From Ostreococcus lucimarinus (lineage: Eukaryota), in NCBI GenBank assembly GCA_000092065.1, contig CP000601.1: a stretch of 64,000 nucleotides of DNA; one strand, 5' to 3'. The position numbers were made by a program, and so were the translations under genes. The notes beneath the pieces were generated by a model. It made no database searches. It was not told the DNA's origin and saw only the letters and a list, made by a program, of their open reading frames with translations. The stretch's first letter is position 1, and each line of letters starts with the position of its first letter. Positions 44,292 to 52,191 of this stretch are shown here, in pieces.

Positions 44292-44429
44292 GAGAAAAAA
44301 ACGATCAACTCAATGGTTCGCAAGTGGCCGTCGAACGCGATTTTATGGTCTCGGCGACCGACCGCGCCTTTGCCGACGACGAATTACGGGCGCGCGACGT
44401 CACTGGACGTCCCCGCGGGCGACGGCGCG

Positions 44430-46190
44430 ATGATGTCGCGCGCGTCCGTGGACGCGGTGCGCGGCGCGCGACTCGGCGCGCGACTCGGTGCGCTCGCGAT
44501 GCGGGCGAGAGCGACGCCGGGAGCGATCAAACACGCGCGGAGCGCGCGCGCGGTGGCGACGCGGGCGACGTACGGACGACCCGAGCGCATCGCGCGCGTG
44601 AAGGGAAACGACGGGGGGGCGTCGCGCGTGGGCGAGGCGTTGGAACTGCGAGGGTGGGCGCGATCGGTGCGGACGCAGAAGGGAATGGCGTTCATCGACC
44701 TGAACGATGGGAGCGCGATCTCGGGGATGCAAGCGGTGGTGAACGAGGGAAGCGCGGCGTGGGACGCGCTCGACGCGGGCGGCGTCTCCACGGGGGCGGC
44801 GCTCAGGGTGAAGGGGAAACTCGTGGCGAGTCCGGGAGGGAAGCAAGCGGCGGAATTGGCGGTGGAGGAGATTGATGTCATCGGAACGGCGGATCCGGAG
44901 ACGTATCCGCTGCAAAAGAAGCGACACACGCTGGAATATCTTCGAAGCATCGCGCACTTGCGACCTCGCACAAACACCATCGGCGCCGTGGCTCGCGTGC
45001 GCAATCAGTTGGCGTACGCGACGCACACGTTCTTTCAAGAGCATGGGTTTTTATACGCCAACACGCCGATCATCACCGCGTCGGATTGCGAAGGCGCTGG
45101 GGAACAGTTTCAAGTGACGACGCTGTTGAACGGCTTCGGCGCCGGCGAGTGGACGACGCCGGCCTCGGTCGTGGACGAGCAAGAAGCCATGGTGAAGGCA
45201 CAGGGTGACGCGGTGAAGGCCCTGAAGGAGGCGAAGAAAGCGGGAGACGCGACGAAAGAGCAAGTTGATGAGGCCGTGGCGAAGCTTTTAGATCTCAAGG
45301 CGAGCGTCGAGGCGCTGAAGAACAATCGCCCGTCGTCCGACTTGCCGAAGAATAAGGATGGTTCCATCGACTATTCTCAAGACTTCTTCGGCAAACCGTC
45401 TTATTTGACCGTGTCTGGGCAATTGAACGGTGAAATCATGGCTTGCGCGGTCAACGACATCTACACCTTCGGTCCGACGTTCCGCGCGGAGAATAGCAAC
45501 ACGTCGCGCCACCTGGCTGAGTTTTGGATGGTAGAGCCCGAACTCGCGTTCGCGGATTTGAACGACGACATGGATTGCGCAGAAGCGTACTTGAAGTATT
45601 GCCTGAACCACGTCCTCGAGCACTGCGACGAAGATCTTGAATTCTTCGAGAAGAACATCTCCAAAGACAACCTGAGAGAGCGACTTCGAAACGTCGCGTC
45701 GCAAGAGTTTGCGCGCATCACGTACACCGAAGCCGTCGAGCACGTGTTGAACGCGAAGAAGAAGTTTGAGTTCCCAATCGAATGGGGATCGGATCTTCAG
45801 AGCGAGCACGAGCGGTACATCTCAGAAGAAGTCTTCAAAGATCGCCCCGTGATCGTGCGCGATTATCCGAAAGATATCAAGGCGTTCTACATGCGTCTCA
45901 ACGACGACAACAAAACCGTCGCCGCAATGGACGTCTTGGTGCCCCGCGTTGGTGAGTTGATGGGTGGTAGCCAAAGAGAAGAACGCCTTGATGTCTTGGA
46001 GCGCCGAATCGAAGAGGTTGGTTTGGAAAAGGAGTCGTACTGGTGGTACTTAGATTTGAGACGATACGGTTCGCAGCCGCACGCCGGTTTCGGCCTCGGT
46101 TTTGAACGCCTCGTTCAGTACGTCACAGGTGTGGAGAACATTCGTGACGCCATTCCTTTCCCCCGTTACCCGGGTAGCGCTGAGTTCTAG
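44430..46190 (+). CDS. Asparaginyl-tRNA synthetase (class IIb) with an inserted WHEP-TRS-like helical domain and an organellar-type presequence
   Basis: An anticodon-binding OB fold is followed by the class II motifs FRAENS, GGSQREERLDVL and GFGLGFERL. The insert AVKALKEAKKAGDATKEQVDEAVAKLLDLKASVEALK looks like WHEP. The first ATG (MMSRASVDAV) is at 44430, and the track ORF begins at 44313. Confidence 0.85.
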   Translation: MMSRASVDAVRGARLGARLGALAMRARATPGAIKHARSARAVATRATYGRPERIARVKGNDGGASRVGEALELRGWARSVRTQKGMAFIDLNDGSAISGMQAVVNEGSAAWDALDAGGVSTGAALRVKGKLVASPGGKQAAELAVEEIDVIGTADPETYPLQKKRHTLEYLRSIAHLRPRTNTIGAVARVRNQLAYATHTFFQEHGFLYANTPIITASDCEGAGEQFQVTTLLNGFGAGEWTTPASVVDEQEAMVKAQGDAVKALKEAKKAGDATKEQVDEAVAKLLDLKASVEALKNNRPSSDLPKNKDGSIDYSQDFFGKPSYLTVSGQLNGEIMACAVNDIYTFGPTFRAENSNTSRHLAEFWMVEPELAFADLNDDMDCAEAYLKYCLNHVLEHCDEDLEFFEKNISKDNLRERLRNVASQEFARITYTEAVEHVLNAKKKFEFPIEWGSDLQSEHERYISEEVFKDRPVIVRDYPKDIKAFYMRLNDDNKTVAAMDVLVPRVGELMGGSQREERLDVLERRIEEVGLEKESYWWYLDLRRYGSQPHAGFGLGFERLVQYVTGVENIRDAIPFPRYPGSAEF

Positions 46191-46253
46191 ATTTAGTCTA
46201 ACGCGGCTGTAACTAAACTACTTAATCTACGCTAGTCTACGTCTACGGTGTCT

Positions 46254-47735
46254 CTACAGTAACGCCTTGCTAAGCGCTTTGAACGTGTAAAGTGATCCCG
46301 TCACGACCACGACAATCTCGTCGTCGCCGCGCGAGAGCGCTCCTTTCAAGGCCTTCTCGAAATCATCTTCTGAGGTGGGAGTCGGACCATGCGCTGGGCC
46401 GATATAAGCCTTCGCGAGCGTCTTCGCGGGCGTCGTTCGAGACGATGCGCCGGCGACTTGCATTTGAGTGCACACCACACCGACGGGATCCGCCCTGTAC
46501 AGCTCTTCAATAAATCCTCCGTGATCCTTGTCGTCCGCCATCGCTACGACGAACAAAAGTTTTCGGTCGGGATAAACCTCACGAATCGTGTTCACGAGAA
46601 CTCGAGCGGAACCTTTGGTGTGCGCGCCATCAGCAATCATCGTGGGCCCTCCACTCGTCTCAAATACTTCAAAGTTCCCCGGACTGCGCGTCGTTTCCAA
46701 GCCTCTTCGAATATCTTCCAGAGATGCGTCGATTTTGTTTTGAGCGCGAAGCCACCACAGAACACGAAGCGCAAGACTTATGTTCTCGCGCTGGTGCGGC
46801 CCAGCGAGAGGAATTCGAACGTTCGAAAGGGTGGACGCTATTTTACCATCCACTTTGATGTCGATGTCGACGTCCTGCGAAGCGATCGAGTCTTCCACGT
46901 GATACCGCACGAGACGCGTGTCTACGCATACGTTATCGATAACGTTCGCCCCACGCGCGCGGAGCGCAGTTTTCAACATTGTTGTTATTCGTTCGTCCAC
47001 GTTTGGGGCACAAAACACCGGACGACCTTTATGCGCGATGCCAGCTTTTGCGTCTACGATTGTCTCAATCGAACCGCCGAGCGCTTCGAGGTGTTCCTCA
47101 CCTATGTGTGTGATCACCGCTGCTTCTAGATTTTCTGCCGCGAGTACGTTTGTGGCGTCTCGACTTCCCCCGAGACCGACTTCCACGAGCGCTAAATCGA
47201 CGTTTGCCTTTTTAAAGTATGCAAAGGCGAGCGCCGTGAGGACTTCAAAGTACGACAACTGACCGCCCTCACGCTGTTGTGCAGACTTTATCTCTCGCTC
47301 TAAATCGCGCAGTACGTCGAGAACTTGTGCAGACGCATCACTTTCGCTACTCCGAATCCTTTCCGCCACGGTATACACGTGAGGGCTCTTATACGTGCCG
47401 ATTCGTAATCCAGCGGCGCGCAGGACGCTCGCGAGCACGGAAACCGTCGTTCCTTTCCCCTTCGTTCCCGACACGTGTATCGTGTTATACGCCCTGTGTG
47501 GATCGTCAAAGTCTCGCAACAATCTATGCATGCGTCCGAGATCGAATCCGTCCGTCGTATCCGTCCCAGCGTTTCGCGGGACGCCGCTCTTTTCGTGATT
47601 GACGAAGTCCCGCAACGCTTCGTCCACCGTCGCGAATGCGGTCGATGTGCGGGCTCGTGCGCGCGCTCTGTGCGCGAACGAGAACAAATTCTCACAGAGC
47701 TCGCGGTGTTGGCGCGAACACGCCGAGCGTCGCAT
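46254..47735 (-). CDS. FPGS: Folylpolyglutamate synthase / dihydrofolate synthase family
   Basis: The P-loop HVSGTKGKGTT is followed by VEVGLGG, DGAHT and a C-terminal Mur-ligase-like domain. Confidence 0.8.
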   Translation of the reverse strand: MRRSACSRQHRELCENLFSFAHRARARARTSTAFATVDEALRDFVNHEKSGVPRNAGTDTTDGFDLGRMHRLLRDFDDPHRAYNTIHVSGTKGKGTTVSVLASVLRAAGLRIGTYKSPHVYTVAERIRSSESDASAQVLDVLRDLEREIKSAQQREGGQLSYFEVLTALAFAYFKKANVDLALVEVGLGGSRDATNVLAAENLEAAVITHIGEEHLEALGGSIETIVDAKAGIAHKGRPVFCAPNVDERITTMLKTALRARGANVIDNVCVDTRLVRYHVEDSIASQDVDIDIKVDGKIASTLSNVRIPLAGPHQRENISLALRVLWWLRAQNKIDASLEDIRRGLETTRSPGNFEVFETSGGPTMIADGAHTKGSARVLVNTIREVYPDRKLLFVVAMADDKDHGGFIEELYRADPVGVVCTQMQVAGASSRTTPAKTLAKAYIGPAHGPTPTSEDDFEKALKGALSRGDDEIVVVVTGSLYTFKALSKALL

Positions 47736-47961
47736 GGTAGCGACGCACCGAGACGCGCGTGCGAAGCGCGGTCTGCGGTCACTCGTCGGGCGAGCAGAAG
47801 AGCGGCTGCGAAGTCGGCGAGCTCTCGTTGGCTCCTCGCACCGCTCGAATCGTGCGAAGAATGATGAGTACTAATGAGAAAGGTGGTAATAAAAAGTCCT
47901 AAACTCGACCGCGTCGCTCGCCCGCCGGCACGACGACGACGTGGTCTTCAAAACGCATTCG

Positions 47962-48576
47962 CTAGCGAGGAGGCGCTGGGGAGTTTTCCAAAATCACTCC
48001 GCCGACCTCGACGCGAGAACCACGCCCTGTGATTATCGTGTTTCTAACATTGTCTGCTATTCTGGGATCCAGTCCTGCACCATCCGCGCACGTCACTCGA
48101 CTCGATCGCGTCTCTTCCGATCCAGCCGTTCTGAAATCTCCCCAATACTCCTTGTCCCCCGGTCCGTCCGCGGAGCCAAAGTTGACGTACACCGGACTGT
48201 CAAACAACTCTGGATACGTCGCCAGTAGCTCTCTCTCGGCGTAACGCAACGTATCTAACACCAACGGTAATTTTTGACGAAACACGACCGAACGAAGGGG
48301 CGCCGCCCATCGTATCCACCAAGCCTCCTTCGCGCTCACCTGACAAAACACGTGCAAGCCGTCCTCGCGCCACTCCGCGAGCACCTCGTCTCTGAGCAAT
48401 CTCGTGTACCATATCGACGTTTGATCGTCGTTGAACGCGTCGCCTACCGTGAGCGTCAAATTCCTCGTCACATCGTTGTGCGTCAGCGTGTAACGCCGCT
48501 GCAATAAAGACTCCGGTTCCACCCGCGTCGAGCTCGCGTCGAACGCCACCGACACTCTGTCCGGGTCAAACTTCAA
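47962..48576 (-). CDS. SGR: Stay-Green (SGR) family protein, putative Mg-dechelatase
   Basis: RRYTLTHNDVTRNLTLTVGDAF corresponds to plant SGR RTYTLTHSDITAKLTLAIS. LAEWREDGLHVFCQVS corresponds to VAEWKK..SLHVHCHIS, and YPELF to YPELQ. The track start is TTG and there is no in-frame ATG, so an upstream transit-peptide exon is likely. The land-plant Cys-rich C-terminal motif is absent. Confidence 0.65.
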   Translation of the reverse strand: MKFDPDRVSVAFDASSTRVEPESLLQRRYTLTHNDVTRNLTLTVGDAFNDDQTSIWYTRLLRDEVLAEWREDGLHVFCQVSAKEAWWIRWAAPLRSVVFRQKLPLVLDTLRYAERELLATYPELFDSPVYVNFGSADGPGDKEYWGDFRTAGSEETRSSRVTCADGAGLDPRIADNVRNTIITGRGSRVEVGGVILENSPAPPR

Positions 48577-49171
48577 GGCGTCGAAAACCGCGTTCGTCGT
48601 CGTCTGCGCGCGCGCGATCGCCGTCGGTCAGTGTCACGATTCCATCGAGTCGCACTCGCGCCTTTCTCGCGCGTCGCTCGCGGTTTTAGACGTCGCCGTC
48701 CCCCCCCATCGCGCGAAAACCGCGCCTCGGACGTCCCGTCCCGTCCCGATCGACGCGCGTCGCGCGCGCGTCGCGTCGCGTCGGTCGCCGCGCACCTTCC
48801 CCCGTCCGCGCCCCTTCGCCGGCCGTCCTCGCGCGCCGGGTCCCGGTCGCCGTCCGCTCGCGTCGCGCGTCGACGTCGACGTCGACGCCCCGCTCGCGCG
48901 CGCGCGCGTCGCGAGCGCCCTATCCAGCGCCATGGCGTCGACGGCGCGCGCGTCGCGTTCGCGCGTCGACGACGCGCGCGCGTCGACGACGCTCGCGACT
49001 CGTCGACGACGACGTCGACGACGACGACGCGCGTCGCTGTGCCGGGCGTCGTCGCGTCGTCGGATCGTCGTCTCGTCGTCGTCCCGCGGCGTCCCGCGCG
49101 TCCGCCTCGAGCGCGAGCGCGAGCGGTCGCGAGCGGTCGCGATCGGACGATGCGACCGATGGTGCGATTGA

Positions 49172-51037
49172 ATGGATACACACGGACCACACCGATCCCA
49201 TCGACGAGTCTCGACTCGAGAACGAGTCCCTCGACGCCCGACGCGCCCCGACCGACGTCACGCGATCCGATCCGCGCGCGGCGTCGTCGCGTCGGCGTCG
49301 TCGCGTCGGCTCGTCACAGCGCGCGTCCGGGACAGCGAGCGCTCGAACGCCCGAACGCGCGAAGCGCCCGAGACGGATCCGAACGCCACGAATCCGCGCC
49401 GAGCGATCGAGCCCGCCATGCGCACCGTCGCGCGCGCGTTCGCGACGACGACGACGTCGAGCGCGAGGTGTGATTATCGCCGTCGAGCGACGACGACGCG
49501 CGCGACGACGAGCGCGGTGCGCGCGGACGCGCGGCGCGCGCGATCGGGGAGGTATGCGATCGTTCCGCGATCGATCGAGGGCGAAGGGAACGCCGCGGTC
49601 GTCGAAAGAAGCGTCGAGGGCGAGGAGGGGGAGAAGATGATGTCCCTGGAGGCGAGACGCGAGGCGCTGAGGTTGCCGCGCCCGGACGTCGCGGCGCCGG
49701 GGATGGAGGATCCGTGGAACGATGAGAAGTGGCAAAAGGTGAAGTGGACGGTGTTTCGAGACGTGGCGTACGACCTCGGACCGTTCTTTGAGAAGCATCC
49801 GGGCGGGAACTGGTTGTTGAACCTCGCCATCGGTCGCGACTGCACGGCGCTCATGGAATCCTATCACTTGCGACCAGAGGTGGCGACGGCGCGCTTCAGG
49901 ATGTTACCCAAGCTCGAGGGGTTCCCGGTCGACGCCGTGGCGAAGTCACCGAGACCGAACGATTCGCCGCTGTACAACAACATCCGCAATCGCGTTCGCG
50001 AGGAACTTTTCCCGGAAGAAGGGAAGAACAAACACAGAATGGGTGGCGACCACGCGACGATAACGATTTTGTCTTTCGCCGCGTTTGCGTACGGTGTGTA
50101 CGCCACCATCCCGGGCTTTCTCTCGGGTTGCCTCCTTGGCTTAGCTGGTGCGTGGATCGGGCTCACGATTCAGCATTGCGCCAATCACGGGGCGATGTCA
50201 CCGTCGCCCGCCGTCAACGGCGTCCTCGGTTTGACGAACGATCTCATCGGCGGCTCGTCTTTGATGTGGCGATACCACCACCAGGTGAGCCACCACATTC
50301 ACTGCAACGACAATGCTATGGATCAAGACGTGTACACCGCCATGCCTCTCTTGCGTTTCGACGCTCGTCGTCCCAAGGCGTGGTACCACCGCTTCCAGCA
50401 CTGGTACATGTTCTTGGCCTTTCCGTTGTTGCAGGTGGCGTTCCAAGTCGGCGACATCGTCGGTTTGTTCACTCGCGATACCGAAGGCGCAAAGCTCCAC
50501 GGGGCGACCACTTGGGAACTTGCCACCGTAGTTATCGGCAAGTTTGTGCACTTCGGTTTGTTGGCTGCACCTTTGATGAGCCACGCGGCTTCCGCCGTCG
50601 TCGCCGGCATCGTCGGTTTCATGGCGTGCCAAGGAGTCGTCCTCGCGTGTACGTTCGCGGTGAGTCACAACGTGCCCGAGGCCAAACTCCCTGAAGATAC
50701 CGGTGGAGAGGCGTGGGAAAGAGATTGGGGCGTGCAGCAGTTGGTGACTAGCGCTGACTGGGGTGGAAAGATTGGAAACTTTTTCACCGGCGGTCTGAAC
50801 TTGCAAGTCGAGCATCACCTGTTCCCGGCGATTTGCTTTGTGCACTACCCCGCGATCGCGAAAATTGTCGCGGAAGAAGCGGCGAAGATGGGCATTCCTT
50901 ACTCGTCATACAGAACACTTCCCGGCATTTTCGTCGCGTTCTGGAAATTCGTCAGAGACATGGGCACGGCGGAGCAAATCGACGACGTTTTACTTCCGAA
51001 GTTCGCGAACCCGCAACTTTCGCCAGCCATCAATTAG
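49172..51037 (+). CDS. Front-end fatty-acid desaturase with N-terminal cytochrome b5 domain (delta4-desaturase-like) and an Arg/Thr-rich presequence
   Basis: The cyt b5 heme motif reads EKHPGGNWLLNLAIGRDCTALMESYH. Three His boxes are present (HCANHG, HHQVSHHIHCN, QVEHHLFP). The first ~150 aa look like a transit peptide. Confidence 0.8.
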   Translation: MDTHGPHRSHRRVSTRERVPRRPTRPDRRHAIRSARGVVASASSRRLVTARVRDSERSNARTREAPETDPNATNPRRAIEPAMRTVARAFATTTTSSARCDYRRRATTTRATTSAVRADARRARSGRYAIVPRSIEGEGNAAVVERSVEGEEGEKMMSLEARREALRLPRPDVAAPGMEDPWNDEKWQKVKWTVFRDVAYDLGPFFEKHPGGNWLLNLAIGRDCTALMESYHLRPEVATARFRMLPKLEGFPVDAVAKSPRPNDSPLYNNIRNRVREELFPEEGKNKHRMGGDHATITILSFAAFAYGVYATIPGFLSGCLLGLAGAWIGLTIQHCANHGAMSPSPAVNGVLGLTNDLIGGSSLMWRYHHQVSHHIHCNDNAMDQDVYTAMPLLRFDARRPKAWYHRFQHWYMFLAFPLLQVAFQVGDIVGLFTRDTEGAKLHGATTWELATVVIGKFVHFGLLAAPLMSHAASAVVAGIVGFMACQGVVLACTFAVSHNVPEAKLPEDTGGEAWERDWGVQQLVTSADWGGKIGNFFTGGLNLQVEHHLFPAICFVHYPAIAKIVAEEAAKMGIPYSSYRTLPGIFVAFWKFVRDMGTAEQIDDVLLPKFANPQLSPAIN

Positions 51038-51156
51038 AATTATAACTTACCTTACGCGCTTGTTGACTTCAAACGAGCAAACGACAGAAATACGATTATT
51101 GTGATATACTTACACCTCCGCCTCATCATTGTTTTGATCTAATTCTAACTTACAAA

Positions 51157-52191
51157 CTACACACGAATTCTCAAGTTGAGCAACTCTCGCTCGGCGCTCG
51201 TTCGATTAAACGTCACACTTTGTCCGATACTCACCGGCTCCGGGGGTGCACCACCCTCTTCGTATGCCTCGTAACTTCTTAAAGTCCCATCAGGACCGGC
51301 ATACGCGCCGTCGACGTAAGAATGGCAGTTGTGCAAACCGGCGTCTGAAAGCAGCTGCTTCGCCCACGCCGCGGAACTACTGCTTCGGCTATGCAACAAG
51401 ATGAGATTATCCGACGTCGGCTTGTGAAATCGGAACATCCGCACCCACTCTTCATCGTTCATATGCACTGCTTTGGGCAGATGATCCACCGGGACGTGCG
51501 TTGACCCCTCGAGTGTTCCGTAAAGCGCGCGCTCGTCAAACCTTCGAATGTCCAAAATCACTAGTCCCAGCGCATTGCCGTCGTCTCTCACCGTTTCCAG
51601 GAGAAGTAACACCGCGTCGAAGCTCAGAGCTCGATCTTTCCCTGATGAAAACACAGCGGGTTCGTCGAAGTGTGCTAGAGGTACCGCCGCGGCGAGTCCG
51701 CCGTCCACGATGGAGCACCGCGTGAATCCCAGGCTCGTCGCGAGCGCCGCGGCGTGCGACGAGCTATGCCCGTGCGTGCTCACAAAAATCATCGTCGTCC
51801 TTAAACTCGGCACGGGAATGTTTGGAAATCTCTTCTTCCACAGTGTGTTACGATTGCGCAACAAGTTCGCCAACTCTTCCGGTAAGATGTGCGTCACGGC
51901 GAGTCTGTCGCTCAGCTTCGTCACCGCCGTCGCCCCCCCGTCCTCGCTCTTCGGTCTGACGTCTAATAGCAAGTATTTCACCGGTTTCGTTTGAACCAAC
52001 ATCCAAAACGCTTTCGCACTCAGCACCCCGTACGTCTGTTTGTTCAATTTCACCGTCGGTTGCGAGCTCGACGTCGTTCGCTGTCTCGCTCGATCTCTGT
52101 GCTTGGCGCTTCGCAAGACGCGCACGGACCAGGCGATGAGAGACAGACACACGGCGGTGGTTAACGAACCGCCGACGTTGGTGACGTGCAT
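51157..52191 (-). CDS. Membrane-anchored protein with two rhodanese-like domains lacking the catalytic Cys
   Basis: An N-terminal TM (LTTAVCLSLIAWSV) is followed by rhodanese-like modules (LLDVRPKSE...THGHSSSHAA and ILDIRRFDERALYGTLEGSTHVP...LLHSRSSSSAAWAKQL). The active-site Cys is replaced by Ser/His in both. The ATG lies 15 nt inside the GTG track start. Confidence 0.6.
   Translation of the reverse strand: MHVTNVGGSLTTAVCLSLIAWSVRVLRSAKHRDRARQRTTSSSQPTVKLNKQTYGVLSAKAFWMLVQTKPVKYLLLDVRPKSEDGGATAVTKLSDRLAVTHILPEELANLLRNRNTLWKKRFPNIPVPSLRTTMIFVSTHGHSSSHAAALATSLGFTRCSIVDGGLAAAVPLAHFDEPAVFSSGKDRALSFDAVLLLLETVRDDGNALGLVILDIRRFDERALYGTLEGSTHVPVDHLPKAVHMNDEEWVRMFRFHKPTSDNLILLHSRSSSSAAWAKQLLSDAGLHNCHSYVDGAYAGPDGTLRSYEAYEEGGAPPEPVSIGQSVTFNRTSAERELLNLRIRV

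Follow-up and report, generated by a model that had tools for sequence, protein, structure and literature searches.

The Stay-Green locus and its surroundings

We analysed a 64,000-nt stretch of DNA from Ostreococcus lucimarinus (the window) and characterised a Stay-Green (SGR) locus on its minus strand. Positions 47962..48933 very probably make up a two-exon nuclear gene for the SGR Mg-dechelatase of O. lucimarinus CCE9901, with the activity itself predicted from its relatives (Table 1). Joining exon 1 (48933..48796) to exon 2 (48603..47962) gave a protein of 259 aa, and an exact-sequence look-up showed that all 259 residues are identical to those of XP_001420948.1/ABO99241.1. The two-exon model is therefore the published one, and both the intron and the family assignment are already known. 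The public names are "predicted protein [Ostreococcus lucimarinus CCE9901]" at NCBI and "Staygreen protein domain-containing protein" in UniRef.

Table 1. Features of the SGR gene, with positions numbered along the window
Feature	Position	Strand	Remarks
Exon 1, coding part	48796..48933	-	ATG at 48933-48931, context gccATGg, plus 45 codons: MALDRALATRARASGASTSTSTRDASGRRPGPGARGRPAKGRGRGK; putative chloroplast targeting peptide
Donor AAG/GTGCGCGG	GT at 48795-48794	-	
Spliceosomal GT-AG intron, 192 nt	48604..48795	-	Conserved signals; spliced contigs; annotated protein
CTGAC, likely branch-point motif	48627..48631	-	A at 48628, 24 nt upstream of acceptor G
Acceptor CGCAG/ACG	AG at 48605-48604; "cag" at 48606-48604	-	
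Exon 2, coding part	47962..48603	-	213 codons + TAG (47964-47962); Staygreen domain and C-terminal tail of ~55 residues
Staygreen (PF12638) domain	48127..48573	-	Residues 19-167 of the 221-aa open frame
H88-N89-D90 (CAC AAC GAT)	48472..48480	-	H88 and D90 are the equivalents of H32 and D34, which are catalytic in AbSGR-h
D118 (GAC)	48388..48390	-	Corresponds to catalytic D62 of AbSGR-h
3' UTR, at least 75 nt	47887..47961	-	Contig L003 matches at 100% down to 47887, then diverges

A homolog search returned 326 proteins, among them green-algal ones of 190-370 aa and bacterial ones of ~153-160 aa, and some of the JGI relatives were labelled 'magnesium dechelatase'. The literature search for SGR in Ostreococcus returned incidental mention only and no experimental work on XP_001420948.1; Ostreococcus is absent from the main text of an evolution paper on the family (PMC9306834). 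When the 259-aa protein was searched against the window by tblastn, a single locus was found, with no second copy. The identical sequence is also deposited as ABP01305.1/XP_001422946.1, and these two NCBI accession pairs in O. lucimarinus, recorded on 2 contigs, suggest that the genome contains the gene a second time, in identical form, at another place.

For comparison we used two orthologous metagenome loci, L001 and L002 (85% and 98% protein identity, respectively), a genomic scaffold from a sister clade (L005), and a Logan contig of run SRR31183261 (L004), which was 99.3-99.9% identical to window positions 51568..45462. The order cytochrome-b5 fatty-acid desaturase (divergent), SGR, folylpolyglutamate synthase and asparaginyl-tRNA synthetase (convergent) was found in the window (44313-51037), L001 and L005, and is thus kept across Ostreococcus clades ~15% apart in SGR protein sequence. 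In L001, as in the window, the desaturase lies on one side of SGR and the two synthetase genes on the other. A different neighbour was seen in L002 (1-6000), where a zf-MYND gene lies upstream of SGR in the place taken by the desaturase in the window (49172-51037), L001, L004 and L005; the difference could stem from rearranged DNA in a close relative, or L002 could be the second-copy locus.

The SGR ATG is separated from the first ATG of the opposite-strand desaturase ORF by ~240 nt with ~75% GC (48934-49171). In L005, the spacer upstream of SGR carries (GGTC)n followed by (GACCC)n tandem repeats (1381-1470), which are absent from the spacer of the window. The first ~130 codons of the 621-aa desaturase ORF (49172-49600) are of low complexity and rich in Arg, Ala and Thr, which leaves the desaturase's true start, or its targeting peptide, in doubt. 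Several long ORFs on both strands between 48600 and 49900 look like high-GC artefacts.

Staygreen domain, catalytic residues and C-terminal tail

The preliminary description of this DNA had identified an SGR homolog here from the motifs RRYTLTHNDVTRNLTLTV, LAEWREDGLHVFCQVS and YPELF, and all three were found in one minus-strand open frame. The family assignment was borne out by the Pfam Staygreen profile PF12638, which matched along profile positions 1-146 of 147 with 127.6 bits (curated cut-off 27) and E=4.3e-37, well outside what chance would give. A HMMER search also matched the sequence of PDB entry 7Y5Y (E=2e-25), the crystallographic structure for AbSGR-h, a homolog from Anaerolineae (PMC11006732). 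In this alignment, H32, D34 and D62 of AbSGR-h fell on H88, D90 and D118 of the Ostreococcus protein, and these three columns showed no variation in two alignments, one of 15 sequences and one of 46. The preliminary description had named missing catalytic residues as evidence against its reading; the alignment, bacterial homologs included, showed all three to be present.

Mutagenesis of AbSGR-h gives these positions their meaning: the D34N and D62N proteins were soluble but inactive and H32A was weakly active, while R26, Y28, T29 and D114 were required for structure (PMC8531759). The structural residues R26, Y28 and T29 correspond to R82, Y84 and T85, which are identical, and D114 corresponds to E169, a conservative exchange that keeps the charge and also occurs in other green algae. 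We then compared folds, using an AlphaFold model built on the exon-2 product. The model had a pLDDT of 77.7, with a confident core and values below 50 for the last ~40 residues. When this predicted model was searched against the PDB with Foldseek, the only match below 1e-3 was 7y5y_A (E=4e-14, target-normalised TM 0.88, rmsd 1.9 Å, 39% identity).

To characterise the C-terminus, we searched the 259-aa protein for the land-plant Cys-rich motif P-X3-C-X3-C-X-C2-F-P-X5-P, both in its strict form and as a loose C..C..CC pattern, and neither matched. The protein contains only two cysteines, C133 and C218, indicating by sequence that it is not of the SGR1/SGR2 type. The preliminary description had likewise noted that a C-terminal motif of plant SGR is missing, but it wrote the motif as CX3CX2CC, and the published plant form is C-X3-C-X-CC (PMC7511501). 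The motif is also absent from plant SGRL and Chlamydomonas SGR and was acquired in land plants (PMC7511501), so its absence here is an expected feature rather than a new one.

In place of the motif, Ostreococcus proteins have a tail (residues ~205 to 259; window 47965-48130) with a conserved C(A/T)DGAGLDPRI(A/S)DNVR block, which reads CADGAGLDPRIADNVRN here. The extreme C-terminus has the form (A/S/T/K)PR, being PPR in Ostreococcus and KPR in more distant relatives, which are probably other Mamiellales. Most of the tail was disordered or of low confidence in the predicted model. The tail of the Mamiellophyceae might be an independent, lineage-specific module for regulation, oligomerisation or thylakoid docking, although we regard this as rather unlikely. 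If true, the problem of controlling a dechelatase that is potentially destructive would have been solved a second time, in an alga without senescence.

The tail and the missing motif also bear on function. A protein with the SGR fold might have chlorophyllide a as its preferred substrate, like plant SGRL, or might recruit catabolic enzymes without being a catalyst itself. Such a reading could draw on the lineage-specific tail and on the Cys-rich motif, which is lacking here as in SGRL and is reported to be indispensable for the activity of Arabidopsis SGR1 (PMC7511501). However, Chlamydomonas SGR prefers chlorophyll a without the motif (PMC7511501), the bacterial enzyme is highly active without it (PMC11006732), and the Ostreococcus protein has kept every catalytic or pocket-forming residue that was tested in AbSGR-h. 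We therefore consider a different function improbable and favour a chlorophyll a Mg-dechelatase.

First exon and intron

The minus-strand open frame that holds the Staygreen domain (48627..47962) extends from a TGA at 48630-48628 to the TAG at 47964-47962. Its translation contained no Met codon, in agreement with the preliminary description, which had reported an ORF with no in-frame ATG starting at a TTG directly after an in-frame stop. The TTG (48576-48574) is indeed the first start-like codon, but among the codons that follow the stop it is the 18th, not the first; a stop is present as described, but there are two, the second TGA lying upstream at 48636-48634. The upper limit given for the ORF, 48700, proved wrong, since it falls ~70 nt beyond the open frame and ~97 nt inside the intron.

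The missing ATG is explained by exon 2 having been read on its own. The preliminary description had proposed that the true N-terminus sits on an upstream exon, and this exon has now been located at 48933..48796: it is conserved in the orthologs, and its spliced product is XP_001420948.1. There is no minus-strand ATG between 49200 and 48934, and the first one downstream of 49201 is that at 48933. The frame opened by this ATG runs for 99 codons in the same genomic frame as the Staygreen domain, from which it is separated by TGA-CAC-TGA. Both TGAs lie within the intron.

To define the intron, we enumerated all GT/GC...AG introns that join the ORF of ATG-48933 to the SGR frame. Dozens were formally possible, so enumeration alone decides nothing. 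A scan of the whole window for the pattern GTGCG...CTGAY...YAG returned 32 candidates, fewer than the 57 that Markov-shuffled sequence gave on average; since this loose pattern is not enriched, splice signals by themselves carry little weight. The choice of intron was made on conservation, on the exact database match and on a spliced contig.

The alignment of the window with L001 and L002 showed a conserved start, donor (AG/GTGCGCG), CTGAC and acceptor (CGCAG/), with freely diverging sequence between them, and the stretch from donor to acceptor diverged much faster than the exons. When GTGCG-type donors were combined with the CAG acceptor, an open frame resulted in each of the three loci from AG/GTGCGCG alone. 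The resulting proteins and introns measured 259 aa and 192 nt in the window, 265 aa and 188 nt in L001, and 259 aa and 187 nt in L002. CTGAC was retained in all three amid the diverging intron sequence, ~24-30 nt before the acceptor, and was present in L005 as well. The general branch-point consensus is CTRAY, by which CTGAC is the likely branch point.

Direct evidence for splicing came from L003, a contig assembled from the reads of run ERR9850558 (Logan assembly). L003 matched window 48824..48796 and then directly 48605..47887, both at 100%, and the 2-nt overlap between the matches is as expected of an AG/...AG/ junction. The protein that it encodes, P0130, belongs to the same 90% cluster and reads ...RPAKGRGRGK/TTTNAVFDAL..., the predicted junction. 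The ends of L003 (1-234 and 981-1063) matched nothing in the window, L001 or L002 and look chimeric around a genuine spliced SGR core; the divergence past 47887 is put down to such an end. L003 thus proves the junction, and the "cag" acceptor that the preliminary description had pointed out at the 5' boundary of the ORF is established by this contig together with the exact match of the product to XP_001420948.1. L003 does not prove the start: it covers the last 29 nt of exon 1, so in O. lucimarinus the use of ATG-48933 is supported by conservation and annotation.

The sister clade showed the same organisation. The genomic scaffold L005 carries a 171-nt intron, AAAG/GTGCGT...CTGAC...CACAG/ACG, and two contigs from different runs, L006 (SRR28369142) and L007 (SRR28369174), lack exactly these 171 nt. 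Both are of transcript type by their structure, with ~107 nt of 5' UTR followed by the ATG and a complete exon 1 that runs directly into exon 2. The start ATG(GCG)CTGGATAGGGCG was conserved in L001, L002, L005, L006 and L007. Spliced-type N-termini were also found in P0154 (O. mediterraneus, UniRef A0A6U0E8P7) and P0175.

These data also bear on two other readings of the locus. One is an intronless gene with a non-AUG start inside the open frame, which would begin at TTG 48576 and yield ~204 aa without a targeting peptide. A mechanical ORF list does contain a 204-aa TTG-initiated ORF, and the bacterial homologs start near the corresponding point. Against this, the spliced junction was directly observed in L003, related loci preserve the exon-1 ATG as well as the splice signals, the transcript-type contigs of the sister clade begin upstream of exon 1, and conservation reaches upstream of the TTG (TTTNAVFDA). 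Moreover, a nuclear-encoded plastid enzyme requires a targeting sequence. We regard a TTG start as extremely unlikely.

The other is a pseudogene or an assembly error, in which the TGAs at 48636 and 48630 would have broken a formerly continuous frame from ATG 48933; although the ATG and the Staygreen domain share a genomic frame two stops apart, and the equivalent stretch is open in one clade, where gene callers read through it (P0142), this reading is extremely unlikely given that the TGA at 48630 lies inside the conserved CTGAC, that donor-to-acceptor sequence diverges much faster than the exons, that the spliced contigs L003, L006 and L007 exist, that the exon 2 protein is 84-98% identical to undisrupted orthologs, and that the exons of L001 and L002 stand in different genomic frames, so that a continuous ORF is not ancestral. 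Intron lengths in two of the three loci (188 and 187 nt) are not multiples of 3 and shift the frame; the shared frame in the window is therefore a coincidence and not the remnant of a once-continuous ORF. The two-exon gene with a 192-nt intron remains the reading that we adopt.

The intron has left its mark on metagenome protein catalogues. Prokaryote-style gene calls on genomic contigs, P0002 and P0140-P0144 (L001 6001-6819; L005 1501-2475), translate into or through the SGR intron, and in the clade of L005, where the 171-nt intron is in frame and stop-free, a 324-aa read-through protein is on record. Many Ostreococcus SGR catalogue entries (P0002, P0140-P0144) thus have translated-intron N-termini that are not real protein sequence. 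For other ATG-less ORFs in Ostreococcus DNA, it is advisable to look for a short, very GC-rich first exon and a small intron.

One contig departs from this structure. L004 lacks 290 nt (window 48895..48606; L004 2650-2660), corresponding to the entire intron together with the greater part of exon 1, and the gap is joined inside flanking (CG)6-7 runs in a stretch of 73-80% GC. The number 290 is not divisible by 3, which puts the ATG of exon 1 out of frame in L004. The gap may be either a real strain deletion or a high-GC artefact; if the deletion is real, that strain has no in-frame ATG.

Proposed role and comparison with known systems

In the alignment, the algal protein has an N-terminal extension of ~46-50 residues (1 to ~50) that the bacterial enzymes lack. 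Exon 1 codes for 46 residues, of which 12 are basic and 2 acidic (net charge ~+10) and 78% are A, S, T, G or R, a composition that fits a chloroplast targeting peptide, as judged from sequence. For SGRs of algae and plants alike, a plastid location is predicted (PMC7511501).

Putting these results together, we propose the following course. Transcription would start in the ~240-bp GC-rich spacer shared with the divergent cytochrome-b5 desaturase gene, and translation would begin at the first AUG (48933). Removal of the 192-nt GT-AG intron (48795..48604) would take out both in-frame TGAs and leave the frame for the 259-aa protein, which would be imported into the plastid via the exon-1 peptide. 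In the mechanism proposed for AbSGR-h, D34 coordinates the Mg of chlorophyll a, and H32 and D62 carry out proton transfer (PMC11006732). By analogy, D90 would coordinate and destabilise the central Mg of chlorophyll a, with H88 and D118 in proton transfer, and the reaction at this site would convert chlorophyll a to pheophytin a. In Chlamydomonas, SGR removes Mg preferentially from chlorophyll a and does so for the formation of photosystem II, not for senescence (Chen et al., cited in PMC7511501); by analogy, the role in Ostreococcus may be the supply of pheophytin a for photosystem II, chlorophyll turnover, or both.

Beyond bookkeeping, these results carry little weight, as the gene, its intron and its family are already in the databases. 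The novelty implied by the preliminary description did not hold, since the gene model is part of the public annotation and the absence of the Cys motif from algal SGR and plant SGRL had already been described (PMC7511501). An SGR knockout in Ostreococcus could show whether supplying photosystem II with pheophytin is what SGR originally did in algae, a question that the present finding does not specifically raise.

Among known systems, the closest is XP_001420948.1/ABO99241.1, which is the same gene with the same intron and zero sequence difference, under a public name that states no function. AbSGR-h shares with the Ostreococcus protein the catalytic residues H32/D34/D62, the structural residues R26/Y28/T29 and, according to the predicted model, the fold. 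It differs in being ~155-160 aa long, with neither an N-terminal extension nor a C-terminal tail, in having D114 where Ostreococcus has Glu, in its broad substrate range (PMC11006732), and in coming from a non-photosynthetic host. The SGR of Chlamydomonas reinhardtii (CrSGR), compared here by its published description, is likewise a green-algal SGR without the land-plant Cys-rich motif; unlike CrSGR as so described, the Mamiellales proteins have a C-terminal tail of their own ending in (A/S/T)PPR. Land-plant SGR1/SGR2 (NYE1/NYE2) and SGRL contain the same Staygreen domain and follow the same general plan, in which a transit peptide precedes the SGR domain and the C-terminus varies (PMC7511501). 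SGR1/SGR2 carry the P-X3-C-X3-C-X-C2-F-P-X5-P motif, whereas the Ostreococcus protein lacks it and in that respect resembles SGRL.
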